The position numbers were made by a program, and so were the translations under genes. This document shows, piece by piece, positions 22,177 through 57,345 of a DNA stretch of 62,308 nt (position 1 is the stretch's first letter; every line of letters starts with the position of its first letter). The DNA comes from Collinsella sp. CAG:166 (GTDB taxonomy: Bacteria; Actinomycetota; Coriobacteriia; Coriobacteriales; Coriobacteriaceae): assembly GCA_000434535.1 (NCBI GenBank), contig FR878731.1:1-62308 (forward strand), given 5' to 3'. The notes beneath the pieces are model-generated. The model saw nothing but the letters and a program-made list of their open reading frames with translations, searched no databases and was not told the DNA's origin.

Positions 22177-22273
22177 TGGCGGGAACGTATGTGAATCGAA
22201 CACATCCAAGACGTTTTGCACGCCTCGCAACGGTTTTGAGGACCGCGGAGCCCACCGGAGCCCATCCGTTCCC
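22177..22273 (-). tRNA. selC: tRNA-Sec (UCA)
   Basis: 97 nt; 6-bp D stem GGGCTC-CGGT-GGGCTC, anticodon loop CCTCAAA, long variable arm, TTCGATT T-loop, GCCA end; downstream of selB. Confidence 0.93.
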
Positions 22274-22422: not shown

Positions 22423-24390
22423 CTAGCGCAGGGACCTCAGGCCGCCGGCGTCTTTGTCGAGCACCGTAAAGCGCACAGCATCCAGGTGTTCCAAGATGCT
22501 GATGGCACGTTTGCGCGACACACCCAGGGCCTCGCGCAGCACGCTCGTGGTGGCAGCGCCGCCGGCTGCCTCAATGGCAGCGGCAACAAGCTCGCGCGCA
22601 TGGGCCTCGGCGGCAGCGGACAGGGCAACGTCGCGCTCGACCTTAACGATCGAGCGGTTGAGCGAAAGCTCGCGCAGGGCACGCGTCATGGTGTCGCGAT
22701 CGAGCTGCAGTTGCTCGCCCACCTCGGGCAACGTCGGTGCATCGAGGCCGGCTTCGTCCAGCAAGGCAACGATACGTTCGCAGGCTTCGCGAACCACGCG
22801 TGCCGCCGCGGCGGCCGAATGCGGATCGAATACCTCGGCGCCCTCGGCGGCGCACACGCCACGCGAGCAGCCCTCGGCAATCAGAGCCGCGGCAACGCCA
22901 TCATCAGCGGCAGACCACGCAGCATGGGCAACGGCGCCGGGCGTAAAGCCCGTCTCCTTGGGGGCAGCCGCGTGCATGGCGGACAGGGTCGCTGCCAGTG
23001 CATCCATCGCGGCGTCGAGCACGGCGGCATTCACATACAGCGCATCGCCCGAGCCGGCAAGCTTGTAAACAACACCTCGCGCCACCAGCTCGTTCAGCGC
23101 GGCGTCGGCCTCAACGGAAACAAGATCTAGCGCTGCGGCAACGTCGGCAACCACGACCGGCAACGCCTGCAGCGCCAGCCACGCATCCACACCAGCGACG
23201 GCATCGCCGGCCTCAAGCGCCGCAAGCAGCGTGCGCTCCCCCACCGAAAGCTTGCGCGAGCGACGGCAGCACGAAAGCAGTACGCGCCCGCCGCCAATGA
23301 GCATAACGGGCGAATACGACAGCACCACGGCGTGGTCTCCAGCGCGCAGCGGCAGCGGCTCCTCCAAGCGCACCTGTACGGTACGGGTCTCGCCCACCGC
23401 CATGGGGGCCTCGCCCTCCAAAAGCATGATGCGGCCGACAACCTCGGCCGTGCCGGCCATCACATGCACGCGCGCGCCCGACTCGAGCACGCGCGGCTTG
23501 GCGCCCTCGCGACCCAGGTAGGTGAACGTCATCATAAAGCGCAACGTCTGACCAAAGCGGTCCGCCACGCCGAGCATCTCGCCACGGTCAAGTGCCGCGA
23601 CACCGTCACCTACCAGGTTGAGCGCCACGCGTTGCCCAGGCAGCGCGCGCGGCGTATCGCCATGCACCTGAATCCCGCGCACACGACAGACCGTACGCGA
23701 CGGTAAAGCCATCAGCTCGTCACCCACCGCAACGGGCGCATCGTGCAGCGTTCCCGTCACGACGGTGCCAACACCCTTGATCGTAAAGCAGCGGTCAATC
23801 GGCAGGCGAGGTGCGGCATCGCTCCGCTCGGAACGGTCACGACAGGCATCCCAGCAGGCACTTACCTGCTCGTCGAGCACCGCAAGCAGCCCGTCGATCC
23901 CATCGCCCGTCTTAGACGACACGGGCACAATGGGCGCGCCCGCAAACACGGTACCCGACAAAAAGTCATCGACATCGAGCTCGGCAAGCTCGGTCATCTC
24001 GGCATCGGCCAGGTCACACATCGTCAGCGCGACCACCATATGCGTAACGCCCAAAAGCTCCAGCACATGCACGTGCTCGCGGGTCTGCGGCATCACGCCC
24101 TCGACGGCCGAAACCACCAGCACGGCCACGTCGATGCCTGTCGCACCCTGCACCATGGCGCGCAGGTAATGGGCATGCCCCGGCACATCGACCAGGCCCA
24201 CGATCTTGCCGCTCGGCAGCGCCAGTTCGCCAAAGCCCAGCTCCACCGTCATGCCGCGACGACGCTCGACCTCTAGGCGATCGGGGTTCTTGCCGGTCAG
24301 CGCCTCGATCAGCGCCGACTTACCGTGGTCGACGTGGCCCGCCGTACCAACGATAACGGGACACTCCACCAGCGCTTGAACCTCACTCAT
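22423..24390 (-). CDS. selB: Selenocysteine-specific elongation factor
   Basis: GTAGHVDHGKS, RGMTVELGF, DVPGH, C-terminal winged helix SRKRAISILEHLD. Confidence 0.95.
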   Translation of the reverse strand: MSEVQALVECPVIVGTAGHVDHGKSALIEALTGKNPDRLEVERRRGMTVELGFGELALPSGKIVGLVDVPGHAHYLRAMVQGATGIDVAVLVVSAVEGVMPQTREHVHVLELLGVTHMVVALTMCDLADAEMTELAELDVDDFLSGTVFAGAPIVPVSSKTGDGIDGLLAVLDEQVSACWDACRDRSERSDAAPRLPIDRCFTIKGVGTVVTGTLHDAPVAVGDELMALPSRTVCRVRGIQVHGDTPRALPGQRVALNLVGDGVAALDRGEMLGVADRFGQTLRFMMTFTYLGREGAKPRVLESGARVHVMAGTAEVVGRIMLLEGEAPMAVGETRTVQVRLEEPLPLRAGDHAVVLSYSPVMLIGGGRVLLSCCRRSRKLSVGERTLLAALEAGDAVAGVDAWLALQALPVVVADVAAALDLVSVEADAALNELVARGVVYKLAGSGDALYVNAAVLDAAMDALAATLSAMHAAAPKETGFTPGAVAHAAWSAADDGVAAALIAEGCSRGVCAAEGAEVFDPHSAAAAARVVREACERIVALLDEAGLDAPTLPEVGEQLQLDRDTMTRALRELSLNRSIVKVERDVALSAAAEAHARELVAAAIEAAGGAATTSVLREALGVSRKRAISILEHLDAVRFTVLDKDAGGLRSLR

Positions 24391-25844
24391 CGAGCAATCG
24401 CCTTCTTAACGCACGCGACGAGCGTCGACGCCGCCGTCTCGATATCGCGGTCACCCACGAGCGTGCGCACATCAAACAGAATGCGGTCGTGCGAGGTACG
24501 CGTGACGACCGGCGTGTCGAAATCTTGGACGAGCGAGCGCTTGAGCGCGTCGACGGACAGGCACCCGTCGACCGGGCAGACGGCCACGCACATGGTGGGC
24601 AGCTCCACGGTAGGCAGCGAGCCGCCACCGGGGGTCGACGATTCCTCGACGATCTCCACCTGAACGGCGCACGGGCAACCGGCCTTATCGAGCCCGGCGA
24701 CCATACGATCGCGCAACTTACGTGCGCGACGCTCCAGATGAGCCTGCGGAAGCGTGAGCATGTTGAGCACCGGCACCTCGCGATGGGCCACATCCGCCCC
24801 GTCCATGTAGATGCGCAGTGTGGCCTCGAGCGCCGCCAGTGCGAGCTTGCCCGGGCGCAGGGCGCGCATAAGCGGATGCGACCCGCAGGCCTGGACCAGA
24901 TCGCGACGGCCCATGATAATGCCCGCCTGTGCGGCACCGAGCAGTTTATCGCCCGAGCACGACACCAGATCGAGCCCTGCCGAAACCGAAGCCGGCGTGG
25001 TTTCTTCGCCGCCACGCACCAAGATGTCGTCGGGCAACAGCGCGCCCGAGCCCTGGTCCTCGTAGAACAGCAGGCCGTGCTTATGGGCCAGCGCGGCGAG
25101 CTCCCTTGAGCTCACTTCCTCGTGAAAGCCCTCAATGCGGTAGTTGGAAGGATGAACCTTCAGGATCATAGCCGTGTCGGGCGTGATGGCGCGCTCGTAA
25201 TCGGCAAGGTGCGTGCGATTGGTGGCACCAACCTCGACAAGTTTGGCGCCCGAAGCCTCCATGACATCGGGAATGCGGAAGCTGCCGCCGATTTCGACGA
25301 GCTCGCCGCGGCTCACGATGACCTCTTTTCCCGCAGCGTGAGTGGCCAGCACCAGCAGCACAGCGGCGGCGTTGTTGTTAACGACCAGCGCGTCCTCGGC
25401 ACCGGTAAGCGAGCGGATCAGCTGCGCGGCATGTTCCTTGCGCGACCCACGCGAGCAGGTGTCCACGCTGTACTCGAGCGTGCTGTACCCGCGCGCGACC
25501 TCGGCCACGGCCTTTGCCGCCGACTCCGCGAGCGGGGCGCGGCCCAGGTTGGTATGGATAACCACGCCCGTAGCGTTTACGGCGGGACGCAAGCTCGGCA
25601 GCGCGGAGCGATGCGCACGCCACTCGATGGCCGAGGCCAGCTCGCGCTTGGAACGCGGGGCGGCGCCGGCACGAATCGCGGCACGCTCCTCATCGAGCTC
25701 GGCCGTGACGGCGGCATGCACCACCGCGTCGCAGGTCTCCCCCGCCGCCTTCACAACCGGCCACTCTGCGAGCAGCTCGTTGACGGAAGGAATAGCGCGA
25801 AGGCGGGCGCGTACCTCATCGGACATGTTCTGGCTATCGCTCAT
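24387..25844 (-). CDS. selA: L-seryl-tRNA(Sec) selenium transferase
   Basis: NATGVVIHTNLGRAPL, VNNNAAAV, EIGGSFRIP, SGDKLLG. Confidence 0.96.
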   Translation of the reverse strand: MSDSQNMSDEVRARLRAIPSVNELLAEWPVVKAAGETCDAVVHAAVTAELDEERAAIRAGAAPRSKRELASAIEWRAHRSALPSLRPAVNATGVVIHTNLGRAPLAESAAKAVAEVARGYSTLEYSVDTCSRGSRKEHAAQLIRSLTGAEDALVVNNNAAAVLLVLATHAAGKEVIVSRGELVEIGGSFRIPDVMEASGAKLVEVGATNRTHLADYERAITPDTAMILKVHPSNYRIEGFHEEVSSRELAALAHKHGLLFYEDQGSGALLPDDILVRGGEETTPASVSAGLDLVSCSGDKLLGAAQAGIIMGRRDLVQACGSHPLMRALRPGKLALAALEATLRIYMDGADVAHREVPVLNMLTLPQAHLERRARKLRDRMVAGLDKAGCPCAVQVEIVEESSTPGGGSLPTVELPTMCVAVCPVDGCLSVDALKRSLVQDFDTPVVTRTSHDRILFDVRTLVGDRDIETAASTLVACVKKAIAR

Positions 25845-25920: not shown

Positions 25921-28038
25921 TTACTCGCTATTATCCTCGCGTGCCGCGATCTTTTCCACGCGAACGGCGTTTTCCTGGGTGAGCGCAGCGCCCGTCAACG
26001 GGTCCCAACGCAACGGCGTATGGTCGAGCGGGCCCACGCCCAAGGCTTGAGCGCCACCGGCATCGGCGCCAAACGAACGCCCGCCGGGAGCGGCCGAGGT
26101 GAAGATGCACGCCGGATGCAGATAGGGCGTCGTCTCCACGCGCACGCGGTCGCGGCCCATGTCGCTCACGAGTTCGACGATCTCGCCGTCGGCGATGCCC
26201 ATGTGCGCAGCAGCATCGGCATTCATCTGCACGGCATCCAGGTCCGACCCAGCCTCGGCGGCACCTTGGGCCGCGAGCCTGCGCGAGGTATGCGACTCAA
26301 AGGGACGGTTGCCGCTAATGAGGCGAAACATCCCCGGGCCAGGCTCCACCATGGGAGCGATCCAGTTGGGTACACAACCCAGGCCGGCTCGTTCCCATAC
26401 GTCGCTTGCCAGCGCAATTTTGCCGCCATCCAGGGGAATCGCCGGCTCACCCGTGCGCGACGGCAGCGGCACGCCCGTATCGGCCCAGCCGCGCTCCTTG
26501 AGCTCGTCCAGATCGATCCCAAACGGTGCCACCTGGGCAGCCGCCAGATCGTCAGACGTAAACCGGAAGTACTCGCCAACGCCACACGCCTGCGCCAGAC
26601 CGACAAAGATCTCCCGACCGGGACGCGTGTCGTTATGCAACACGGGCAGCACGGCGTTGCGGTAGAACACGCACGAATCATTGGCGCCCACGACTGTGCC
26701 CACACCGCGATCGGCCTCCAGGTACGTCACGTCGGGCAGCACGAAATCAGAAGCACGCGCCGTCTCGGACCAGCGAATGTCAATCGTCACGAGCAAGTCG
26801 AGCTGTTGCAAAATGCCCAACCAAGCCTGCGCATTGCCATAGCCCGCACCGGGGTTACTGGCATAGACGATGAGCCCACGCAAATCGCCGGCAAGAATCG
26901 ACTGACCGATGGTCGTGCACAGGCCGCGCACCGGATCGACCAGTGGATAGCGCTCGGAGCCCAACTTGGGCTCACGTGGCATCGACGGCATTGCGAAACG
27001 CGCAGGGTCCAAATCGCCCAATGCAAGCGGCGTGGGCGGGTTGAGGGCACCGCCCGCATGCCCAATACAGCCCAGCAGCACATCGACCAAGCAGATAGCG
27101 CGCGCGGTCTGGGTGCTATTGGCATACGCGATACCGATGCCACCATGAAAGCCAGCGTCCACCACCGCAGCAGGCGCCGCGGCAGCCAAATCTCGCGCAG
27201 TCGCGACAACCTCTGCGGCAGGCACGTCGCACATCGACTCGGCCCACTCGGGCGTCCAAGCATGGGCCGCCTGCACCAGCTCGTCAAAACCCGTGGTATA
27301 GAGGGTCACAAACTCGTGGTCATACAAGTCCTCGGCAATCAAGACATGCGCAATGCCCAGCAGCAAGGCAAGGTCACAGCCCGGGCGCACGCGCAGCCAG
27401 CGGTCGGCAAGCGCAGCCGAGCCACTGCGCCGGGGGTCGACCACGATAATCTTCGCCCCACGGCGACGGGCATCGTTGAGCGCATCAACGGCCCCCATCG
27501 TCGACGAATCGACGATGGAACGCCCCAGGTACATGATGCAATCGGTATGCGCCAGGTCGGAGGCGGGACTATAGCCCAAGCTGTGCTCCCAACCGGTAAG
27601 TCGGCTTACCTCGCAGGCACCGTCGGCACCGTACACGTTGGGCGAACCAAGCGCATGCATAAAGCGATGCGCCCAGTAGCGGTCGAACGAGGGCACGCCG
27701 AGCGTCATGCCCAGCGCACGGGGACCATGCCCGTCAACAATCTCCCCAAGGCGCGCTGCGATCTGCGCGAACGCCTCATCCCAGGAAATCGCATCGAACC
27801 CCGAGCCATCAGCTCGTCGGCGCATGGGGTGCAAAATCCGGTCGCGCTCGTCAAACGGCATGTCCAGGCGATGGCGCCCGCGGGCGCACAGGGCACGCGC
27901 CGCGCACGGATGCCCCACAACCGGCAGTTCAGCCACCACACGCCCATCCTCAACATGGGCCGCAAAGGCGCAATCGGCATAGCATCCCCCGCATGTGGTC
28001 ACCACGGCGCGACCGTCACGCTTCACAGCAGATGCCAT
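25921..28038 (-). CDS. DMSO-reductase-family molybdopterin oxidoreductase (PsrA/PhsA-like), no Tat signal
   Basis: N-terminal CGGCYADC...LCARG FS0 motif, ISWDEA, VVDPR, SETARASDFVLP; putative Mo ligand Cys in GADGACEVSR. Confidence 0.8.
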   Translation of the reverse strand: MASAVKRDGRAVVTTCGGCYADCAFAAHVEDGRVVAELPVVGHPCAARALCARGRHRLDMPFDERDRILHPMRRRADGSGFDAISWDEAFAQIAARLGEIVDGHGPRALGMTLGVPSFDRYWAHRFMHALGSPNVYGADGACEVSRLTGWEHSLGYSPASDLAHTDCIMYLGRSIVDSSTMGAVDALNDARRRGAKIIVVDPRRSGSAALADRWLRVRPGCDLALLLGIAHVLIAEDLYDHEFVTLYTTGFDELVQAAHAWTPEWAESMCDVPAAEVVATARDLAAAAPAAVVDAGFHGGIGIAYANSTQTARAICLVDVLLGCIGHAGGALNPPTPLALGDLDPARFAMPSMPREPKLGSERYPLVDPVRGLCTTIGQSILAGDLRGLIVYASNPGAGYGNAQAWLGILQQLDLLVTIDIRWSETARASDFVLPDVTYLEADRGVGTVVGANDSCVFYRNAVLPVLHNDTRPGREIFVGLAQACGVGEYFRFTSDDLAAAQVAPFGIDLDELKERGWADTGVPLPSRTGEPAIPLDGGKIALASDVWERAGLGCVPNWIAPMVEPGPGMFRLISGNRPFESHTSRRLAAQGAAEAGSDLDAVQMNADAAAHMGIADGEIVELVSDMGRDRVRVETTPYLHPACIFTSAAPGGRSFGADAGGAQALGVGPLDHTPLRWDPLTGAALTQENAVRVEKIAAREDNSE

Positions 28039-28104
28039 CTCGATTACCCCTTTCATCAGTCAAACACAACAGGCCAAAAGCCCGGCAACGAGCCCCAGAC
28101 CCAA

Positions 28105-47970: not shown

Positions 47971-49110
47971 CTAGCAGGCTAAATCGCGCAAAGCGTCAAT
48001 CGCGGTGTCGACTTCCTCGGCCGTGTTGAAATACCCAAACGAGAAGCGAACGATACCCTGGCGCTCGGTCCCGAGCGCGCGGTGCATGAGCGGAGCGCAA
48101 TGGGCACCGGGGCGCGTCGCAATCCCCCACCCTTGCATAAGCGCGTCCGAGATCTCGGCAGAGTCGATATCGCCCACGTTGAGTGAGACGATCGCCGAGC
48201 GCACAGGCTGATCAAACGCACCGTAGAGCGCAATGCCGGGGATTTCGCGAACGCCGGCGAGGAAGCGCTCGGCAAGCGCGCGCTCATGCGCCGCAATCGC
48301 CTCGACCCCGCCCTGGGCCTCGATAAAGTCGAGACCTGCGGAAAGTCCCGCGATGCCGTGACCGTTGAGCGTGCCCGCCTCAAGGCGCGTGGGCCACTCA
48401 AGCGGCTGCAGTGCATCGAAGCTGTGCACGCCCGTGCCGCCAATGGCCCACGGAGCCACGTCAACGCCCTCCGCCACGGCCAGGCCGCCGGTGCCCTGTG
48501 GACCCATGAGCCCCTTGTGGCCGGTAAAGCACACGACGTCGAGGCCCATAGCCTGCATATCGACATACATCGCGCCGGCAGACTGCGAAGCATCGACGAT
48601 CACGAGGGCGCCGGCCGCATGCGCGATGGCAGCCACGCGCGCAACGTCAACGGCATTGCCGGTCACATTGGAGGCGTGCGTCACCACCACGGCACGCGTG
48701 CCCGGCGTGACCAACCGCTCGAGCTCGTCGTAGTCGAGCGCGCCGTTCGCGTCGCAGCCCGCATGCTCAACGGTCACACCCCGCTCAGCCGCAAGACGAT
48801 TAAGCGGACGCAGCACTGAGTTGTGCTCAAGCACCGTCGTGACCACGCGGTCGCCGGGACGCACCACGCCGTTGATGGCGGTGTTGAGCGCCGCCGTCGA
48901 GTTAGGTGCAAAGCACACATGGTCGGCGCGCGGGCATCCCAGCAGGCGCGCAAGCTTGGCGCGGCAACCATGAATCGTACGCGCGGCATCGAGCGCACCC
49001 GAGGTGGCACCGCGCCCGGCATTGCCGAGCGAGCACATCGCCTGCGTCACGGCATCGATGACCGTCTGCGGCTTGCGCATGGTCGTCGCCGCGTTATCCA
49101 GGTAGATCAT
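47971..49110 (-). CDS. Class V PLP enzyme, cysteine desulfurase/selenocysteine lyase family (group II-like)
   Basis: IYLDNAATT, EHNSV, DASQ, TGHKGL, RPGAHCA. Confidence 0.88.
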   Translation of the reverse strand: MIYLDNAATTMRKPQTVIDAVTQAMCSLGNAGRGATSGALDAARTIHGCRAKLARLLGCPRADHVCFAPNSTAALNTAINGVVRPGDRVVTTVLEHNSVLRPLNRLAAERGVTVEHAGCDANGALDYDELERLVTPGTRAVVVTHASNVTGNAVDVARVAAIAHAAGALVIVDASQSAGAMYVDMQAMGLDVVCFTGHKGLMGPQGTGGLAVAEGVDVAPWAIGGTGVHSFDALQPLEWPTRLEAGTLNGHGIAGLSAGLDFIEAQGGVEAIAAHERALAERFLAGVREIPGIALYGAFDQPVRSAIVSLNVGDIDSAEISDALMQGWGIATRPGAHCAPLMHRALGTERQGIVRFSFGYFNTAEEVDTAIDALRDLAC

Positions 49111-49358
49111 CGCACGACCTCCCACATATCAATCACGGTATAGCCCTCTGTGGGAACGCCCGCCGCGGCGAGTTCGCCGCGCAGCAGCTCCTCATCGGCA
49201 GGCAACGCCTTCCACGCCAAACCGCAGCCGGCAGCGACCTCCCCGGGCACGGGTATCGTTCGCCCGGGAAGGCCGCGCTCGATACACAGGGACTCGCAGC
49301 CCATGGCGGCCGCCGTGGTGGGAAACGTGATGACAAGCGCCGGGCGCTTCTCCCTCAT
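49107..49358 (-). CDS. DUF3343 putative Se/S carrier protein
   Basis: ITFPTTAAAM...GRTIPVPGEVAAGCGLAW. Confidence 0.78.
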   Translation of the reverse strand: MREKRPALVITFPTTAAAMGCESLCIERGLPGRTIPVPGEVAAGCGLAWKALPADEELLRGELAAAGVPTEGYTVIDMWEVVR

Positions 49359-49377
49359 GGCAACTCCAACCAATACG

Positions 49378-50004
49378 CTACGGGCGCACGACGCGCACGG
49401 CCTGCTCCATCTTCTCCACGATCACGTACATGTTGGTGACCTCGCCCACCGCAAGCTGGTCTTTAATGCCATAGTGGTCGAGGCAGGTGCCGCAGGTGAG
49501 AATCTCGACACCCTGCTCCGCCAGGCCCTTCAGGTCGTCGAGCACCGGAGACCCCTCGACGGTGAGCTTGGCGCCGCCGTTGTAGAACAGCATGGTCGCG
49601 GGCAGTTCCTCCTGCTGCGTCACGGCAAAGATAAACGCCTTCATGAGCTTGTGGCCCAGCTCGTCGTCGCCACGGCCCATGCAATCGGTGTAGACGGAAA
49701 TGACGAGTTTGCCCTTGCCGGCGCTGGCGTCGCAGAAGGCAGCGCCATCCTGCTCAGGATCGGCCACGGCAACGGCGCCAGAGGTCGCCACGGTCACGTG
49801 CCACTCGGCGTCAGAAACCTTCTCTACCGAGGCCGTGCAGCCCTTCTCCTGCGCCATCTTGGAGATGTTCTTGACGGCAGTCTCGTTATCGACCGAGGTC
49901 ACCACGGCACCCTCGCCATCGAGCCGCTTCAGGGCTTTGAGCGTCTTGACGACGGGCAGCGGGCAGGCATCGCCCATGGCATTGACTTCAATTTTGGTAG
50001 ACAT
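49378..50004 (-). CDS. yedF: Sulfurtransferase-like selenium metabolism protein YedF (TusA + DsrE domains)
   Basis: GDACPLPVVKT TusA motif; MGRGDDELG, FYNGG, CGTCL. Confidence 0.82.
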   Translation of the reverse strand: MSTKIEVNAMGDACPLPVVKTLKALKRLDGEGAVVTSVDNETAVKNISKMAQEKGCTASVEKVSDAEWHVTVATSGAVAVADPEQDGAAFCDASAGKGKLVISVYTDCMGRGDDELGHKLMKAFIFAVTQQEELPATMLFYNGGAKLTVEGSPVLDDLKGLAEQGVEILTCGTCLDHYGIKDQLAVGEVTNMYVIVEKMEQAVRVVRP

Positions 50005-50064
50005 AGTTTTTCCTTTCGAAAGAACCGTTCTAGAGAACGGTAAACAGTTACATAAACGTGCGGG

Positions 50065-51114
50065 CTAGCGAACAACGTGGACGGCAGGACCGCCTGGCAC
50101 CGGCTCGCACACGCGACCGACGACGGCGGCAATACGTCCTTCGGCATGCAGACGGCGCGCAAGCTCATCCACATCGGCAGCAGGTGCCGCGATGAGCAGG
50201 CCACCAGACGTCTGCGGATCGTACAGCGCATCCAACATGCCCGGCTCCAGGTCTTCGTCGGCAGCCACGCGCGGGCCAAAGAAGTCCTGGTTGCGGTAGG
50301 AGCCCGCGGGGATAATGCCCAGACGCGCCATGTCGAGCACCTGGTCAAAGAGTGGAACCGCCCCCGACGCAAGCTCAACCTGCACGCCCGAGCCCTCGGC
50401 CATCTCGCACGCATGCCCGATCAGACCAAAGCCCGTAATGTCAGTACAGCCGTGAAGCTCGAGTCCCTCGGCCAGACGAATCGGAGCCTCGTTGAGAGTG
50501 CGCATCGAGTCAAACATGGCTGCGGCCTCGTCCTGCTCGATAAGCTCGCCCTTAATGGCCGTGGTGATGATGCCCGAGCCGATCGCCTTGGTCAGCAGCA
50601 GAACATCGCCCACGTGTGCGCCGCTGTTGGCGAGCATGCGGTCGAGTGGCACAAAACCGCTCACGGACAGGCCGTACTTGGGCTCGTCGTCGTTGATGGT
50701 GTGGCCGCCCGCGATGGAGCAACCCGCCTCGACGCACTTGTCGGCGCCGCCCGCCAGAATCTGACCGGCGACCTCGATGCCCAGGCAGCTCGGGATGCAC
50801 AGCAAGTTCATGGCATGGCTCGGCCGCCCGCCCATGGCGTAGATGTCCGACAGCGAGTTGGCCGCGGCGATCTGGCCAAACAGGAACGGGTCGTCGACCA
50901 TCGGCGGGAAGAAGTCGATGGACTGCACGAGACCAAGGTTCTCCCCTACGCGGAAGACGCTCGCATCGTCGGAGGTATCGAACCCCACGAGCAAGTTGTC
51001 GTTATGCACATTGGGTAAATCGCCCAGGACCTGGGCGAGGGCTCCGGGGGCCAACTTAGCGGCTCAACCGCTCGCGGCCGTCATGGACGTGAGCCTCATG
51101 GTGTCCTTAGCCAT
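50065..51114 (-). CDS. selD: Selenophosphate synthetase, selenoprotein (UGA = Sec17), 349 aa
   Basis: MAKDTMRLTSMTAASG-TGA(51064-66)-AAKLAPG in frame; DDASV, DFFPP, AANSLSDIYAMGG, TDITGFGL, DPQTSGGLL. Confidence 0.95.
51020..51038 (-). promoter_or_regulatory. Candidate SECIS of selD
   Basis: TCGCCCAG-GTC-CTGGGCGA hairpin 25 nt after UGA. Confidence 0.55.
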
Positions 51115-52324
51115 ACGAACCCCCTTCCAACAAATTAACGACTTTAAGTATACGCCCCAGGCACGCTTCCCAAGAGACCGCCGACGGCTCGAACGTCGAA
51201 GGCGGAGCCGCAAGCGCCTGCGCGATAGCATCTGCCAGTGCGCGCTCAAACAACGGAAGGTCGGCCGCCACGGGCGTGTCGACATCCGTCATACGCGGCG
51301 ACGCCACCCACGTCACGGGAGCACCGGGAAGCATCGCCTCCATCCAGGGACGAACGCCGGGCAAATCGGTCGCCACAACTTTGCAGCCGCACGCGAGGGC
51401 CTCGATCGTCACGAGCGGCAAACCTTCGTAAAACGAAGGCAGCACAAAGACGTCGGAACTGCGGTAGGCACGCACGAGTTCATCGCTATCCAGGCGCCCC
51501 GCCAGCGTCACCGGCACATCCGAGGCCGCGGTCAAGCGCTCGATACGCGCGTACTCGGCATCGTCCCCGCGGCCGCCCACAAGTACCAAGCCAGATGAGC
51601 GGACGCCATCGTCAATCGGCAATGACACAGCTCGAACCAGCGACTCGACGCCCTTTTTAAAGCAAATCTTGCCCACGTACACAAGCGATCCCGGCTGCCT
51701 CGCCACGCTTGCGTCGCGGCAGAAGACGCGATGGTCGTAGCCCGTCCCAATCACGTGGATGCGATCGGCATCGACGCCGCACACCAGGCCAATCTGCTCA
51801 GCCTGCTCAGCGTGGAGCGCAAAGACGGCATCGAGCCGACGAACCGCACTTACGATGCGATCGCGCTCGAGCGCATGCGAACGCAGCTGGCGCAGGTCGG
51901 TCGAATGGCACACGGCAACAACCGGCACGCCCCGGACGCACTCGCGCGCCAATGCGGTCACAAGATACAGGTGATGGCAGAGCACCAGATCGGGCCGAAA
52001 CTCAGCCACCGCCCGATCGATTGCAGCAGCAAATGCCCGCTCAAATGCCTTGAGCATCGAAGGCGTCAGGTCACGATAGCGCGTGGAGGGATAGGGCATG
52101 ACATCGGACATACCGCAGATGGGAAACGGCAGCTCGGGCGACTCGAACGGTACGGCAAACACGGCAGCACGCCGGTCCAGCTCGCCTTGGGTATCACCCG
52201 GTGCCGCGCCGCAAAGCACGGCGGCGCGATGCCCCGTCTCGATCTGTTCGCGTACGAGCGCGGCAAGGTAGGTGCCGCTGCCGGTGCTATCTGGTTTTTG
52301 CGCCGAGATATTGAGGATGCGCAT
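51107..52324 (-). CDS. GT-B/family 4 glycosyltransferase
   Basis: MRILNISAQKPDSTGSG, YVGKICFKKG, FVLPSFYEGLPLVTIEALACG (EX7E); overlaps selD start. Confidence 0.85.
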   Translation of the reverse strand: MRILNISAQKPDSTGSGTYLAALVREQIETGHRAAVLCGAAPGDTQGELDRRAAVFAVPFESPELPFPICGMSDVMPYPSTRYRDLTPSMLKAFERAFAAAIDRAVAEFRPDLVLCHHLYLVTALARECVRGVPVVAVCHSTDLRQLRSHALERDRIVSAVRRLDAVFALHAEQAEQIGLVCGVDADRIHVIGTGYDHRVFCRDASVARQPGSLVYVGKICFKKGVESLVRAVSLPIDDGVRSSGLVLVGGRGDDAEYARIERLTAASDVPVTLAGRLDSDELVRAYRSSDVFVLPSFYEGLPLVTIEALACGCKVVATDLPGVRPWMEAMLPGAPVTWVASPRMTDVDTPVAADLPLFERALADAIAQALAAPPSTFEPSAVSWEACLGRILKVVNLLEGGSYG

Positions 52325-52338
52325 GTCGCGGTACACCC

Positions 52339-53103
52339 CTAGGCCAAGGCGGCGGCGCGGACAGCCGCGCCGATCGCTCCGGCAAAGCGAGCTTGGGGCG
52401 AGGTGGTCACCGGCGACCCCAGTAGCTCGCCCAACCGCTCCACCACGAAGGCGTTCTCGCACAGGCCACCGGTCAGGTAGTACGGGGCGCCCGCGGCCTG
52501 CCCGGCCATGGTCGCCACGCGCGATACGACACTCTCAATCACACCACGGGCGATGTTCTCGCGCGGCTCACCACGGCCGATCAGGCTGATGACCTCGCTT
52601 TCGGCAAACACCGTGCACATGCTGGAAATCTTGGTAGGCTCGCCGGTGCGGGCGAGGTCTGCCATCTGCTGCTGGGTAATGCCCAGGCGGTCGGCCATGA
52701 TCTCCAAAAAGCGCCCCGTGCCGGCGGCGCACTTGTCGTTCATGGCAAATTTGGCCACGCGGCCGCCTTTAAGCTGGATGACCTTGGTGTCCTGACCACC
52801 CACATCGATCACGGTGCCATGGTCACCAAACAGACGCACGGCACCGGTGCCGTGGCAGGTGATCTCGGTCACGACCTTGTGCGCATAGGGCACGGCAACA
52901 CGGCCGTAGCCAGTCGCGACCACGCGAACATCGTCGCCCGTCACGTCGTAGCCGGCCGCTGCCAGTGCCTCGCGCAGCCGCTCGGAAGCATCGACCGAGG
53001 AAAACCCGGTTGGCTGCACGCACGTCCACGCCACCGAACCCTCCCCGTCGACCACAGCAGCCTTAGCCGCCGTAGACCCGATATCGATCCCGATCCCTAT
53101 CAT
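52339..53103 (-). CDS. ASKHA ATPase electron-transfer activator (HgdC/BadF-type; DCCP reductase-like)
   Basis: GIDIGST, ATGYGR, TEITCH, DVGGQDTK, MNDKCAAGTG, CTVFAESE. Confidence 0.9.
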   Translation of the reverse strand: MIGIGIDIGSTAAKAAVVDGEGSVAWTCVQPTGFSSVDASERLREALAAAGYDVTGDDVRVVATGYGRVAVPYAHKVVTEITCHGTGAVRLFGDHGTVIDVGGQDTKVIQLKGGRVAKFAMNDKCAAGTGRFLEIMADRLGITQQQMADLARTGEPTKISSMCTVFAESEVISLIGRGEPRENIARGVIESVVSRVATMAGQAAGAPYYLTGGLCENAFVVERLGELLGSPVTTSPQARFAGAIGAAVRAAALA

Positions 53104-53155
53104 GGCTCTCTCCCAATCTAAACATCAAAGGTAGCGGCGCGTTCAGGCGCCTTAG

Positions 53156-53265
53156 CTCTAGGTTTCTCAGGTGCCGGAGATTGCCCCGAAAGAGGAGCGC
53201 AGCGTACTTTGGGTACGCAAGCGACGGTTTGAGGGGCAAGATCCGGTGCCTGAGGAAGCTAGAGG
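53156..53265. repeat. Palindromic element family D, copy 1
   Basis: CTCTAGGTTTCTCAGGTGCCGGA...GAGGAGCGCAGCGTACTTTGGGTACG...TCCGGTGCCTGAGGAAGCTAGAG. Confidence 0.7.
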
Positions 53266-54422
53266 GTTTCGATGAAGGCGGCGATGCGCGTCTCGATCTG
53301 GCCCATGTCGCCGTTGCTGTAGTCGGTCTCGATCTTCATGTACGGAACACCCGCACCCTCGACGGCCTCCTGCATGCGCGCGCTCTCAACGTTGAAGGTG
53401 TGGCAGGCCTGCAGCACGCTCTCCACTACGCCATCGACGTGATACTTCTCGCACATGACCAGCGTGTTTTCCATACGACCGTCGTTGGGCGTCATGACCG
53501 AGCAGTTAATGTCCAGGTAGCGGTCGGCGATGGCGCGCAGGATGTCGGGAGCCTCCGGGTCGATCATCATGGCCGCCGTGCGCTCGCCCGAGCAGTCGTC
53601 CATGCACACGACCACACCGCCGTTGGACTCGATGGTGCGACCGATCTTGTTGATTACACCGCCCACCGGGCAGCCGGTGATCAGAATGCGCTTGGCATCC
53701 GCCGCAACCGGGCGCTCGCCCGCGTCGTAGGCCTCGCGCAGCTTGGCAACCTTTTGCTCCAGCTGCTGCGTATAGGCCTCGATATCAAAGCTAAACGTAC
53801 CGGCGAACATGGTGCTCATCAGGTCGACGCCGCTCATGGCCGCCGGTTGGTTAGCCTGCAGCGCAAACATCTCGAGCTGGGCGGCACGCAGGCGGTTGCG
53901 ACGACGAACGGCAGCGCGCAGGTCGTCATCGGTAATCGTGATGCCGTAGAAGTTCTCGAGCTCCTCCTTGAGCAGGCGGCACTCCTCGTACCAGCCTTCA
54001 CGCTCGTAGGCGCGATCGCGACCCTGCGGCAGGTGCAGAATGTGCGTGCGCTTGAGCTCGTTGAGTAACTCGTACATCTTCTTCTTGCCGTCGCAGGTGG
54101 TCTCGCCGATGATCATGTCGCTAAAGTACGTAAACGGGCACTTTTGCGAGTAGGCAAAGCCGTACGTCGACTTGATGAGCGGGCAGAGGTTTGCCGGCAG
54201 CACCTTCTCGGCCTCGGGAATCACCTCGTCGGATGTGCCGCACAAGGCCACACTTGCAGCGCCCGCGGCATCGATAATCTCGAGCGGCGTGTAGCTGCAC
54301 AGAAAACCGATCAGGCGATTACCGGCCTGCTTGTAATCCTTGACGCGAATAAACGACGCCTTGCGCTGCTCGTTGAACTCCTCAAACGTGGACGGCAACG
54401 GCTGCTCAATATATTCCGACAT
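53259..54422 (-). CDS. 2-hydroxyacyl-CoA dehydratase family / double-cubane cluster protein (paralog 2)
   Basis: [53 protein letters not shown]. Confidence 0.82.
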
Positions 54423-54459
54423 ATAACTCCTTAACAAACCTTTTAACCAACCAAGGAAA

Positions 54460-54546
54460 CGGCTTTCCCAGGTGCCCGAGGTTGCCGTGAAAGAGAAGCG
54501 CCGCGTACTTTGTTGAACGGCAAGATCGGGTGCCTGGGGAAGCCGC
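54460..54546. repeat. Palindromic element family D, copy 2
   Basis: CGGCTTTCCCAGGTGCCCGA...GAGAAGCGCCGCGTACTTTG...TCGGGTGCCTGGGGAAGCCG. Confidence 0.7.
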
Positions 54547-54560
54547 CGGGACGGATACCC

Positions 54561-55844
54561 CTAAATGGTTTCTAAGAACGCCTCAATGCGCGTCTGCAGC
54601 TGGCCTGCGTCCTCGCCGGCGTAGTCGGTGGTGATATGCATAAACGGGATGCCCGCCTCCTCAGCGGCCTTCTCGACCTGGAAGGACTCCATCTCATAGA
54701 GCGTGCAGAACTGCAGGGCCACGTCGACGATGCCATCGGCATGCAGGTCCTTGGCCATCTGGACAATGTCCTTCATACGCTGGTCGTTGGGCGTAAAGAC
54801 GGCGCAGTTGATCTTGAAGTAGCGCTCGGCGATGTCGTCGAGCATCTCGTCGACCGTCTCGCCGGACTCGTCGACCAGGTCCTTGTAGTAGCGCGAGCCC
54901 GTGCAGGACTCCTCGCCGACCACAACGCCGCCGGCCTTCTCGATGAGGTTGAACAGCTTCCAGTTGGGCACGGCCATGGGCGTGCCGGTGTACAGGATGC
55001 GCTTGGTCCCCTTGGGCGCCACGCCCTCGCCGGCCTCGACACGCTGCTCGCACTCAGCCGCCATATCGTTGATGGCTCCGGTCAGACGCGGCGTGTCGTC
55101 CATAAAGGCGGCCTGAACGGTCAGCAGGCTGTCGAGACCGCTGATGGGCGCAGGGTCGGCAGCGCGGGTCGCAGCGAGGCGCTGCAGGGCGCGGCGCTTC
55201 TCATTGACGGCGTGGATGGCAGCCTTCAGACGCTCGGGCGTAATCTTGACGCCGCACTCGTCCTCGATCTTGGCGGCGAGCTTCTTGACCTCGGCCTTCC
55301 AGGTCACGAGCGTCGACTCGTCGTGCACGTTGGGAATATCCATGACGTACATGTTCTTTTGCGTGGCAAAGAACTCGTAGGCTTTCTTCTTGCCATCGCA
55401 GGTGTTCTCGCCTACCACCAGGTCACTCGACTCAATGTAGGGGCAGACCTCGCCCAGCTTAAAGCCGGCAAAGCTCTTGATAAGCGGACAGGTGTTGCGC
55501 GGCAGATGCTCCTCGACCTTATCGGTTGCCCAATCGGCACCCGAGCACAGACCCACGGGGATACCGTCGCAGGCGAGAACAATCTCCTCGGGCACGTAGA
55601 CGCAGAAGCTGCCAACAATCTTGGTGGCCTCGCCGGCCTCCTTCTTGTCGAGCATCTCCTTAATGCGGCCGCTGTGGATGTTGGTGGCGACAAAATCCAG
55701 GTAGGACGTGGACTTGGGGCGATTGTTCTGCGTCAGGAACATATCGCCGTACATCTGGCCCACGGCACCCAGCAGCATGTCGTGGTCGGCAAGATTCATG
55801 CCGAGGCTCTCCCACATCGGATGGAAATCGAATTCTTCAGCCAT
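54561..55844 (-). CDS. Double-cubane cluster-containing reductase-like protein (paralog 1)
   Basis: SFCVYVPEE, GLCSG, NTCPLIKS, VCPY, ENTCDGKKK, EESCTG, INCAVFTPN, QFCT. Confidence 0.82.
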   Translation of the reverse strand: MAEEFDFHPMWESLGMNLADHDMLLGAVGQMYGDMFLTQNNRPKSTSYLDFVATNIHSGRIKEMLDKKEAGEATKIVGSFCVYVPEEIVLACDGIPVGLCSGADWATDKVEEHLPRNTCPLIKSFAGFKLGEVCPYIESSDLVVGENTCDGKKKAYEFFATQKNMYVMDIPNVHDESTLVTWKAEVKKLAAKIEDECGVKITPERLKAAIHAVNEKRRALQRLAATRAADPAPISGLDSLLTVQAAFMDDTPRLTGAINDMAAECEQRVEAGEGVAPKGTKRILYTGTPMAVPNWKLFNLIEKAGGVVVGEESCTGSRYYKDLVDESGETVDEMLDDIAERYFKINCAVFTPNDQRMKDIVQMAKDLHADGIVDVALQFCTLYEMESFQVEKAAEEAGIPFMHITTDYAGEDAGQLQTRIEAFLETI

Positions 55845-55961
55845 AACGGTTCCCCTCTCGAACCAAAAATGAGTAGCTACGGTATTGCTGCACGGTGGGT
55901 GGCGAAAACCCAGCCGCGCCTAAACCCGGAATTTTGGGGAACCTGCTTTGCGGTCGATTAT

Positions 55962-56072
55962 TTAGTTGTGCGTCGTCTCTCCCGGAGCCGTGAACATACC
56001 TGCTCATATGCGACTCCGAGCCATATACAGGGCGCGCGCGGCAACGCGGCGAATGTATGTCGTCTGCGGCAT
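55962..56072 (-). CDS. Putative leader peptide with in-frame UGA (22 aa if stop, 36 aa if Sec)
   Basis: AAAGGAGG RBS (56081-56088), ATG 56072, MPQTTYIRRVAARALYMARSRI-TGA(56004-06)-AGMFTAPGETTHN-TAA. Confidence 0.5.
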
Positions 56073-56274
56073 GTGCGCACCCTCCTTTACAAGATAAGAT
56101 CAACTATATCAACGGTCATCGACCATGCGAACACCGTTGACATTCGTACGACAGCATCGTGTGCCGTCGTTTAATAAACAATTCTCTTGATTGATAAGAG
56201 TTTGTCATCTCTCATTCGGCGAACGGCAGAAACAAAGCCGCCGAGGCTTATATCCCCGACGGCATTACCCGGCG

Positions 56275-57345
56275 CTATCGACAAACCAAATGGATCCTGC
56301 TGGCATCGAAGTGCATGCGCAGCGTCTCGCCTGCTTGCGGTAGCTCGTCGACAGGCACGCCCACCTTGTTGACCTTCCACTGCAGACGCGTGGGCGCATC
56401 AGCGCGCGGCACGTCCAGCAGCACCAGCCGCTCAAAGCGCGAATCGCTCACACGGGCCACATGCAAATCGTAGCTGTTACGGCCCCGCTCAACGCGATTA
56501 TCAATATGGAAATAGCTTGCGCGAACGCCCAGGTACGCCACATTATCGGGGACCTCGCGGCCCACGTTAAAGGTCATGCCCCAGTCGAGGGCCTCAACTT
56601 CTTCGTCGCCGATTTTGCGCGCACGGCTTGTGTTCTTGCAGCCAGTTAGGCGCAGCGCCGCCAGCGTCTGCGGACGGCGGACCACGTCCTCGACGGAGCC
56701 GAGCTCCTCAACATGCCCGTCGTGCATCACACAGATGCGCTGGCACAGGCGGCATGCCTCGTCGATGTCGTGGCTCACGTAGAGCACGGTGCGGTTGCAG
56801 ACATCGAACAGGTCGAGCATATTCTGCTCGAGGGCGCTCTTGAGGTACGCATCGAGCGCACTCATGGGCTCGTCGAACATAAAAATGCCCGGATGCGCCG
56901 CCACCATGCGGGCAAGCGCCACGCGTTGTTGCTGGCCGCCCGAGAGCCGCGCGGGATAACGGTCGGCGAAATCGGCCAGGCCAAAGATGCCCAGATAGCG
57001 CTCGGCCAGCCTTTTTCGCGCCGCGGCGTCGCCCGCGTCCTTTACACCGGCACATACGTTATCGGCCACCGTCATGCTGGGAAACAGCTGATAGTTTTGG
57101 AACAGCAGGGCGCATTTTCGCTCCTGGGGCGACAGGTTGATGCCCGCCGCCGAGTCAAAAAAGGTCACGCCGTTGACGACGATCTTGCCCTCGTCGGGCG
57201 TCTCCACGCCGGCGATGCAGCGCAGCGTACAGCTCTTGCCGCAACCCGAGGCACCGAGCAGCGCCACACGATCCTCGCCGGCCTCAAGCTGCATGTCGAG
57301 CATAAACCCGGGATAGCGCTTTTTGATATCCAGAACGAGCGACAT
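56275..57345 (-). CDS. modC: Molybdate ABC transporter ATPase
   Basis: GASGCGKS, LSGGQQQRVALAR, DEPMSALD, VSHD. Confidence 0.88.
   Translation of the reverse strand: MSLVLDIKKRYPGFMLDMQLEAGEDRVALLGASGCGKSCTLRCIAGVETPDEGKIVVNGVTFFDSAAGINLSPQERKCALLFQNYQLFPSMTVADNVCAGVKDAGDAAARKRLAERYLGIFGLADFADRYPARLSGGQQQRVALARMVAAHPGIFMFDEPMSALDAYLKSALEQNMLDLFDVCNRTVLYVSHDIDEACRLCQRICVMHDGHVEELGSVEDVVRRPQTLAALRLTGCKNTSRARKIGDEEVEALDWGMTFNVGREVPDNVAYLGVRASYFHIDNRVERGRNSYDLHVARVSDSRFERLVLLDVPRADAPTRLQWKVNKVGVPVDELPQAGETLRMHFDASRIHLVCR

Follow-up and report, generated by a model that had tools for sequence, protein, structure and literature searches.

A conserved structured leader with a probable 22-codon peptide gene ending in UGA precedes the selenium operon of Collinsella

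What is a UGA codon doing in a short reading frame directly upstream of an operon for selenium metabolism? The question is raised by the minus strand of the window analysed here, that is, the whole stretch of 62,308 nucleotides of Collinsella sp. CAG:166, where a preliminary description had pointed out a strong ribosome-binding site and a UGA-containing ORF ahead of the selenium genes and had proposed that the UGA senses selenocysteine (Sec). All of these features are found, and the translation of the leader peptide is reproduced exactly. The locus is best read as a cis-regulatory leader, some 250 nt long and specific to this lineage, that is arranged around a translated 22-codon leader peptide gene, and at roughly even odds (about 0.5) we take this leader to be a leader-peptide switch, in which the UGA is the stop codon.

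The leader sits on the minus strand between an ABC-transporter operon, which has a modABC-like architecture by its Pfam domains and ends at 56275, and the selenium operon. In the latter, the first gene DCCP1 is followed by DCCP2, an activase gene, a GT4 glycosyltransferase gene, selD (itself encoding a Sec protein, with its in-frame UGA at 51066-51064 on the minus strand), yedF and a gene for an SclA-like cysteine desulfurase, the last one reaching to 47971. Both double-cubane reductases pass the NF040772 model (491 and 495 bits, cut-off 350) and YedF passes TIGR03527 (213 bits, cut-off 110). Double-cubane proteins have been linked to SelD in print (bioRxiv 10.1101/2022.07.06.499078; PMC5322559; both in part), and this tie of the reductases to selenium has been noted, yet remained unexplained in the accessible part of the former (bioRxiv 10.1101/2022.07.06.499078). 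It is conceivable that the operon (47971-55844, minus strand) encodes a pathway for a selenium-containing small molecule. The GT4 protein bears a faint likeness to the selenosugar synthase SenB (22 bits, below the cut-off of 300), and the genes between DCCP1 and selD vary across the species of the genus. The genes for selenocysteine insertion are clustered in the same window, about 30 kb away from the selenium operon, whose first gene is listed with them for comparison:

55844-54561, minus strand: DCCP1, double-cubane-cluster reductase, first gene downstream of the leader
24387-25844, minus strand: selA
22423-24390, minus strand: selB
22177-22273, minus strand: tRNA-Sec, clustered with selB and selA

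The Mo-oxidoreductase encoded beside selA (25921-28056) uses Cys and not Sec. A crude, non-rigorous scan of the genome, in which an in-frame TGA had to have flanks resembling coding sequence and a hairpin resembling a SECIS, and by which Sec codons near the N-terminus are missed, gave 17 candidates, all of them resembling shadow frames, and no selenoprotein besides SelD; SelD may therefore be the sole selenoprotein of this genome. A rho gene is present (558 bits, cut-off 509). Among 760 long ORFs, at 60% G+C, TAG closes 45%, TAA 38% and TGA 17% (131/760), TGA being the rarest stop codon.

Between the two operons, the leader is laid out as follows:

56263-56237, minus strand: terminator-like hairpin of the upstream ABC-transporter operon, from a terminator scan
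56131-56103, minus strand: promoter-like site with the -35 element TTCGCA, a 17-nt spacer and the extended -10 element TG-TATAGT
56088-56081, minus strand: Shine-Dalgarno sequence of the leader ORF, AAAGGAGG, 8 nt from the ATG
56072-56004, minus strand: leader ORF consisting of ATG and 22 sense codons (MPQTTYIRRVAARALYMARSRI) with the closing TGA
56072-56070, minus strand: start codon ATG of the leader ORF
56006-56004, minus strand: TGA of the leader ORF, codon 23
56003-55962, minus strand: in-frame continuation past the UGA, 13 codons (AGMFTAPGETTHN) and TAA
55964-55962, minus strand: TAA closing the continuation, codon 37
117 nt, minus strand: spacer from the TAA to the ATG of DCCP1 (55844)

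From the promoter-like site, a transcript start near 56096 is predicted; two such sites were found as compared to 0.6 +/- 0.7 in shuffled sequences, and the one at 56131-56103 is conserved in the alignment of the genus. RNA-seq contigs of 1-23 kb from 4 runs of related isolates extend across the region and reveal neither ends of transcripts nor levels of expression. A possible transcription-factor operator, largely conserved in the same alignment of the genus, is an inverted repeat (56184-56200, minus strand; arms of 5 bp separated by 7 nt) some 55 nt ahead of the -35 element. From the leader ORF to DCCP1 (56004-55845, minus strand), the terminator scan revealed no intrinsic terminator, and a terminator with a competing antiterminator, by which a classical attenuator is recognised between leader ORF and first gene, is absent. 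A second copy of the leader is not found in the genome by blastn-short, which returns short chance matches only; the 14-nt match at 20023-20010 was rejected as a second copy, since it falls inside a coding region. This region presumably encodes a glutamate dehydrogenase-like protein, judging from a motif.

Whether the leader ORF is translated can be judged from the way it varies. We read the leader at 105 loci of 99 genomes, giving 59 distinct uORF sequences, in addition to an earlier set of 27 genomes; all of these sequences come from one shallow genus of close kin (DCCP1 97-99% identical), so that the conservation counts that follow are not independent of each other. The comparison of orthologous leaders suggested in the preliminary description bears out its first expectations: the AGGAGG core of the Shine-Dalgarno sequence is invariant in 27/27 distinct leaders, the TGA is kept in 59/59 uORF sequences and never appears as UAA or UAG, and the frame runs on to the TAA, likewise kept, in 59/59, with zero indels. 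The start codon is ATG in 56/59 and GTG in 3/59, a swap that preserves the start. Nucleotide diversity by codon position is 0.018/0.044/0.142 over codons 1-22 (27 genomes) and 0.011/0.007/0.131 over DCCP1 in the same genomes, the third positions of the uORF thus being level with those of the reductase gene (0.142 vs 0.131). Over codons 2-22, the minor alleles among the 59 sequences number 33/46/159 by position and the high-frequency changes are mostly synonymous; residues 8-22 of the peptide are almost fixed, residues 2-7 are variable. This pattern of substitution indicates that codons 1-22 very probably are translated, and it is good evolutionary evidence for selection on the leader peptide at the amino-acid level, i.e. 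for a peptide that matters. The locus would accordingly belong with the uORF leaders, having in the 5' leader of an operon a short, apparently translated ORF with a ribosome-binding site of its own. Neither the 22- nor the 36-residue product matches an NCBIfam family at E up to 0.01.

Past the UGA, the pattern changes. Diversity over the 13 codons of the continuation is 0.033/0.024/0.011 and the minor alleles are spread evenly (13/12/12), without codon periodicity and with third positions about tenfold less variable than neutral (0.011). In selD of the same genus, taken as a control, the 13 codons past the Sec codon yield 0.014/0.010/0.083 and thus remain periodic despite their overlap with the SECIS. 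The preliminary description had taken the frame beyond the UGA for a read-through frame; however, coding-type variation of the kind seen in selD is missing there. This stretch is GC-rich and open in all three frames; the open frame after the UGA therefore carries no evidential weight. The lack of periodicity together with the low third-position variation indicates that past the UGA the constraint acts on the RNA.

The RNA elements on which such constraint could act are the following:

56083-56075 with 56037-56029, minus strand: helix P1 (RNAalifold), 3' part of the leader Shine-Dalgarno region with codons 12-15
56020-55981, minus strand: hairpin P2, 16 bp, enclosing the UGA
55943-55936 with 55855-55848, minus strand: long-range helix P3, GGUUCCCC with GGGGAACC, covering the ribosome-binding site of DCCP1 and enclosing P4
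55919-55908 with 55900-55890, minus strand: hairpin P4, inside P3
55976-55937, minus strand: C-rich, G-poor stretch, comprising the end of the continuation, the TAA and spacer, with C=13 and G=7 in a 40-nt window

The most prominent of them, P2, was missed in the preliminary description. Its lower stem of 10 bp (56020-56011 with 55990-55981) is followed by a 4-nt bulge, CAUA, and an upper stem of 6 bp, in which UGAGCA pairs with UGUUCA (56006-56001 with 55996-55991) below the loop GGUA (56000-55997). The first three pairs of this stem are made by the leader UGA itself, and codons 18-22 pair with sequence past the UGA. With -22.7 kcal/mol and a z-score of -4.09, P2 is matched in stability by only 1 of 200 shuffled sequences, and over the 59 sequences 2 of 944 cells are unpaired: 30 changed cells still pair and 2 are broken, all of the changes being one-sided, with zero double compensatory ones. 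The loop reads GGUA in 55 sequences, GGUG in two, AGUA in one and GGCA in one. The CTC-CGG-GAG hairpin that had been reported instead does exist and starts 16 nt past the TGA as stated, but it amounts to three pairs and is part of the 3' arm of P2.

For P1, 99.2% of the cells are paired, with one-sided changes only; P3 is paired to 100% in the 27 sequences and shows two one-sided changes; changes on both sides occur in P4 alone (two pairs), and those represent linked haplotypes. Taken together, 99.7% of the whole structure is paired in the 27 sequences, compared with 36-55% when the partners are slid. The stretch at 55976-55937 begins just past P2, is mostly unpaired in the consensus fold and is the leader's only clear window with C over G, which makes it a candidate Rho loading site. 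Rfam gives 0 matches for 55600-56500 at E up to 10; the same search also misses the true selD SECIS, and this null result is therefore uninformative as to SECIS likeness. A reading of the leader as a T-box was rejected, there being no Rfam match, and so was tRNA mimicry: P2 and tRNA-Sec have only an 8-mer in common, which by a rough estimate is expected by chance.

The complementarity underlying P3 had already been recognised: GGTTCCCC (55943-55936) indeed pairs with the stretch at 55855-55848 just before the ATG of DCCP1, and a local GGTTC (55864-55860) is present as the alternative partner. The switch in accessibility of the ribosome-binding site that had been built on it finds no such agreement. 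When the leader was folded without a ribosome footprint and with one placed at the UGA or at the UAA, the unpaired probability of the DCCP1 Shine-Dalgarno sequence came to 0.31, 0.31 and 0.39; a ribosome at either codon leaves P3 intact and the site about equally paired, and simple refolding thus does not explain how the uORF would be coupled to DCCP1.

The leader is a feature of one genus. A covariance model built on the uORF region (R1) found it at full length in 127/151 Collinsella genomes, as a single copy except for one assembly that has two. Among 133 genomes from 68 further genera of the order, the model detected no complete leader; two of them gave weak partial matches (E 0.02 and 0.1), confined to the P1 region. 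Of the 36 Collinsella species sampled, 29 have DCCP1 at 97-99% identity and one more has it at 86%. The model also found no leader at nine loci carrying more divergent DCCP1 orthologs (45-89% identity), nor did a scan for uORFs with a Shine-Dalgarno sequence reveal a convincing UGA leader upstream of five distant orthologs. The 86% ortholog (genome G034) is preceded by a short intergenic region without the leader, and in two genomes (G005, G013) modC is followed directly by selD, with neither the DCCP genes nor the leader. Another genome (G017, locus L107) has lost the ribosome-binding site of DCCP1, DCCP1 and DCCP2 themselves and the greater part of the activase gene by a deletion, so that the leader, preserved as far as hairpin P4, now abuts the activase tail; selD comes next and retains its own upstream region. 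The leader thus accompanies the DCCP module. Upstream of a 69%-identical DCCP1 ortholog in Tractidigestivibacter montrealensis (L228:2850-3000), there are two short GC hairpins sharing the same 6-nt loop, which begins with UGA; no uORF was found there.

How might such a leader work? In the mechanism that we favour, ribosomes would load at the strong Shine-Dalgarno sequence, translate the 22 codons, melt P2 and arrive at the UGA, which would be read as a stop by release factor 2. What happens at this stop would decide the fate of the remaining leader: release could be fast or slow, and the conserved, arginine-rich C-terminal end of the nascent peptide might tune it, as might P2 when it refolds. 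Further downstream, the C-rich unpaired spacer would offer a place where Rho could load, while the long-range helix P3 would keep the ribosome-binding site of the first gene paired. We infer that the leader regulates the operon, with the decisive event at the stop codon and with an output via Rho or via masking of the ribosome-binding site; given the genes under its control, the signal presumably is related to selenium.

The stop-codon reading draws on the codon-type variation that is seen before the UGA and lost after it, where selD keeps its periodicity past the Sec codon, on the preserved start and Shine-Dalgarno core, on the strength and conservation of P2, on the company of the DCCP module and on a C-over-G spacer in an organism that has rho. 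Against it, all sequences belong to one shallow genus and P1-P3 are backed by one-sided changes only; a ribosome placed in silico at the UGA or UAA leaves the pairing of the ribosome-binding site the same, and an intrinsic terminator is lacking. Moreover, the choice of the rarest stop codon, its selD-like context and the SECIS-like loop of P2 would all have to be left to coincidence or ancestry.

Classical leader-peptide attenuators are represented by the trp, his and phe leaders. They share with the Collinsella leader a small leader ORF whose translation would report charged tRNA, but here neither a run of regulatory codons nor a terminator/antiterminator pair with a U tract is found before DCCP1. 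One of them, hisL, is also listed in PMC12360218 (in part). Closer in logic are tnaC of E. coli, speFL and cruR of Bordetella, which are uORF stop-codon switches coupled to Rho (PMC12360218, in part): as in these systems, the Collinsella leader has a short, probably translated ORF with a conserved peptide, its decisive event would take place at the stop, and a C-rich spacer precedes the first structural gene in a genome that encodes Rho. Unlike them, it shows no sequence similarity to any of the three, and its stalling and its Rho site are proposals only; its stop codon lies inside a 16-bp hairpin while the ribosome-binding site of the first gene is paired, a combination that goes unmentioned in the accessible part of PMC12360218.

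The main rival to the stop-codon reading is that the leader senses selenocysteine or SelB, i.e. that it gauges the capacity for selenocysteine insertion, either by a UGA in a context copied from selD, contested by release factor 2 and SelB, or by capture of SelB at P2, and so sets the expression of DCCP, selD and yedF according to the Sec supply. We consider it unlikely when both versions are taken together; each version by itself is less probable still.

In the first version, which we hold to be rather improbable, release factor 2 would compete for the UGA with SelB and Sec-tRNA(Sec); at high insertion capacity, ribosomes would read through to the TAA 13 codons on and cover the C-rich spacer and the foot of P3, by which the expression of the operon would be altered. 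Much in the surroundings would suit such a gauge. The operon downstream holds selD, itself encoding a Sec protein, yedF and the SclA-like lyase, selA, selB and tRNA-Sec lie in the same window, UGA is the rarest stop codon, and the TAA kept in every sequence is placed such that a read-through ribosome would cover the only C-over-G stretch. The UGA context resembles that of selD as well: the match of 20/25 aligned bases with one 3-nt gap that had been described is reproduced, and by the same scoring 2 of 49,015 other TGA triplets of the genome reach 20/25, one being selD and the other a site (contig C155) antisense to a coding region, which we regard as a chance match. By three neutral, left-anchored scorings, however, selD ranks only about 161-259 of 49,012 (p ~0.005), and when local alignment is left unanchored, an equal or better score is reached by 2375 of the 22,660 genome windows sampled. 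The likeness to selD is thus real but only moderately significant, depends on the scoring and does not reach upstream at the DNA level.

It is the hairpin that speaks most directly to this version. In the model of a bacterial SECIS, the apical loop has 3-9 nt and the upper stem 4-16 bp (Fig. 2 legend, PMC13188914), one of the two opening loop positions is a G, with G or U usually next to it, and 16-37 nt separate the UGA from the apical loop (PMC13188914, in part). With its 4-nt loop, its 6-bp upper stem, its loop G in the tally over 59 sequences and its stability, P2 is like a bacterial SECIS in all but the spacing: its loop starts 3 nt past the UGA, instead of 16-37 nt, and the UGA itself is paired in the stem, so that P2 must be melted when the UGA stands in the A site. 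At 16-37 nt past the UGA, no suitable hairpin with a loop G is present; the segment from +13 to +62 folds to -7.7 kcal/mol without any local hairpin, and the sole hairpin at the right distance is the three-pair CUC-CGG-GAG, which the preliminary description had itself rightly called weak. In the SECIS of selD, for comparison, a hairpin of 8 bp carries the loop GUC, about 34 nt past the UGA of that gene. The Sec codon of selD, like the leader UGA, is structured: within 51031-51102 (minus strand; about -36 to +35 nt relative to this codon), the flanking codons pair in a small 6-bp hairpin that carries the UGA in its 3-nt loop, before the SECIS proper. Nor does the sequence past the leader UGA carry the coding signature found past that of selD (0.033/0.024/0.011 vs 0.014/0.010/0.083). 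The conservation of the UGA cannot decide the matter, as it is accounted for by the pairing of its three bases in P2, within a shallow clade. Hence, from the proposed selenocysteine-sensing attenuator, a probably translated ORF in a conserved structured 5' leader with an unvarying UGA, the rarest stop codon of the genome, can be retained, while the SECIS spacing and the coding continuation fall away.

In the second version, slightly less probable than the first, P2 would serve as a SECIS-like operator or decoy that binds SelB, so that translation of the leader ORF or the stability of the leader would be tied to the pool of SelB-GTP-Sec-tRNA without any insertion of Sec. The claim that no Sec-linked leader control has been established in bacteria overlooks the precedent: in the 5' leader of E. 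coli selAB, a SECIS-like element is bound by SelB (Thanbichler and Bock 2002, cited in PMC13449736 and PMC8124441, both in part). Collinsella is comparable to this case: it has selA, selB and selC, and the 5' leader of its selenium genes contains a hairpin shaped like a SECIS. P2 agrees with three of the four structural features of a SECIS, its loop begins with G followed by G or U in 57/59 sequences, its energy is far below -7.5 kcal/mol (PMC13188914, in part), and the selD SECIS of the genus has a similar CAGGU apex. The E. coli element, however, lies 3 nt from the Shine-Dalgarno sequence of selA (PMC13449736, in part), whereas P2 adjoins no ribosome-binding site, starting about 60 nt past that of the leader and ending (55981) about 120 nt before that of DCCP1 (near 55860). 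P2 further differs in lying inside a probably translated uORF, in holding the UGA of this uORF and in preceding DCCP, selD and yedF instead of selAB. One sequence has a GGCA loop. Hairpins with G-rich tetraloops are common, which counts against an operator role. The Rfam search detects neither P2 nor the true selD SECIS and hence is no test of this version.

About as improbable as the gauge is a non-sensing relic: the 5' end of selD, with Shine-Dalgarno sequence, start, Sec codon and the next 25 nt, would have been duplicated and its SECIS lost, leaving what now would be a constitutive uORF and structure that fixes the level of expression or the stability of the mRNA, or a small protein with a role of its own. 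The selD-like UGA context, the missing SECIS and the confinement to one genus would fit, as would a weak resemblance of the peptides on both sides of U, with R, M, U, A, A, P and G aligned by eye. On the other hand, purifying selection on the peptide and the RNA-level constraint past the UGA argue that the element still functions, the similarity to selD is moderately significant only and absent upstream at the DNA level, and both products, of 22 and 36 residues, are without a family in NCBIfam. Very improbable, finally, is a riboswitch-like RNA that binds a metabolite or a protein and contains the ORF incidentally, for although the long, structured and conserved leader masks a ribosome-binding site and is not in Rfam, third-position periodicity, ATG to GTG swaps and an invariant strong Shine-Dalgarno sequence would be unexpected in a non-coding stretch.

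The regulation of bacterial selenium use is poorly understood. In the literature consulted (including PMC13449736; in part), the regulators named are LysR-type regulators and the selAB operator of E. coli only, and full-text searches aimed at such control retrieved, in the parts accessible, neither a bacterial leader ORF that senses Sec nor the leader discussed here. Collinsella is a common genus of the gut, and most of its genomes carry this leader ahead of the genes that make selenophosphate and of the double-cubane reductases. The uORF, its UGA and the hairpin around it form a compact element, which could be tested by a few point mutants. If it is true that the UGA or the hairpin reports the supply of selenocysteine, this would be the first such sensor shown; if selenocysteine is not sensed here, the element would still be an undescribed leader-peptide switch.
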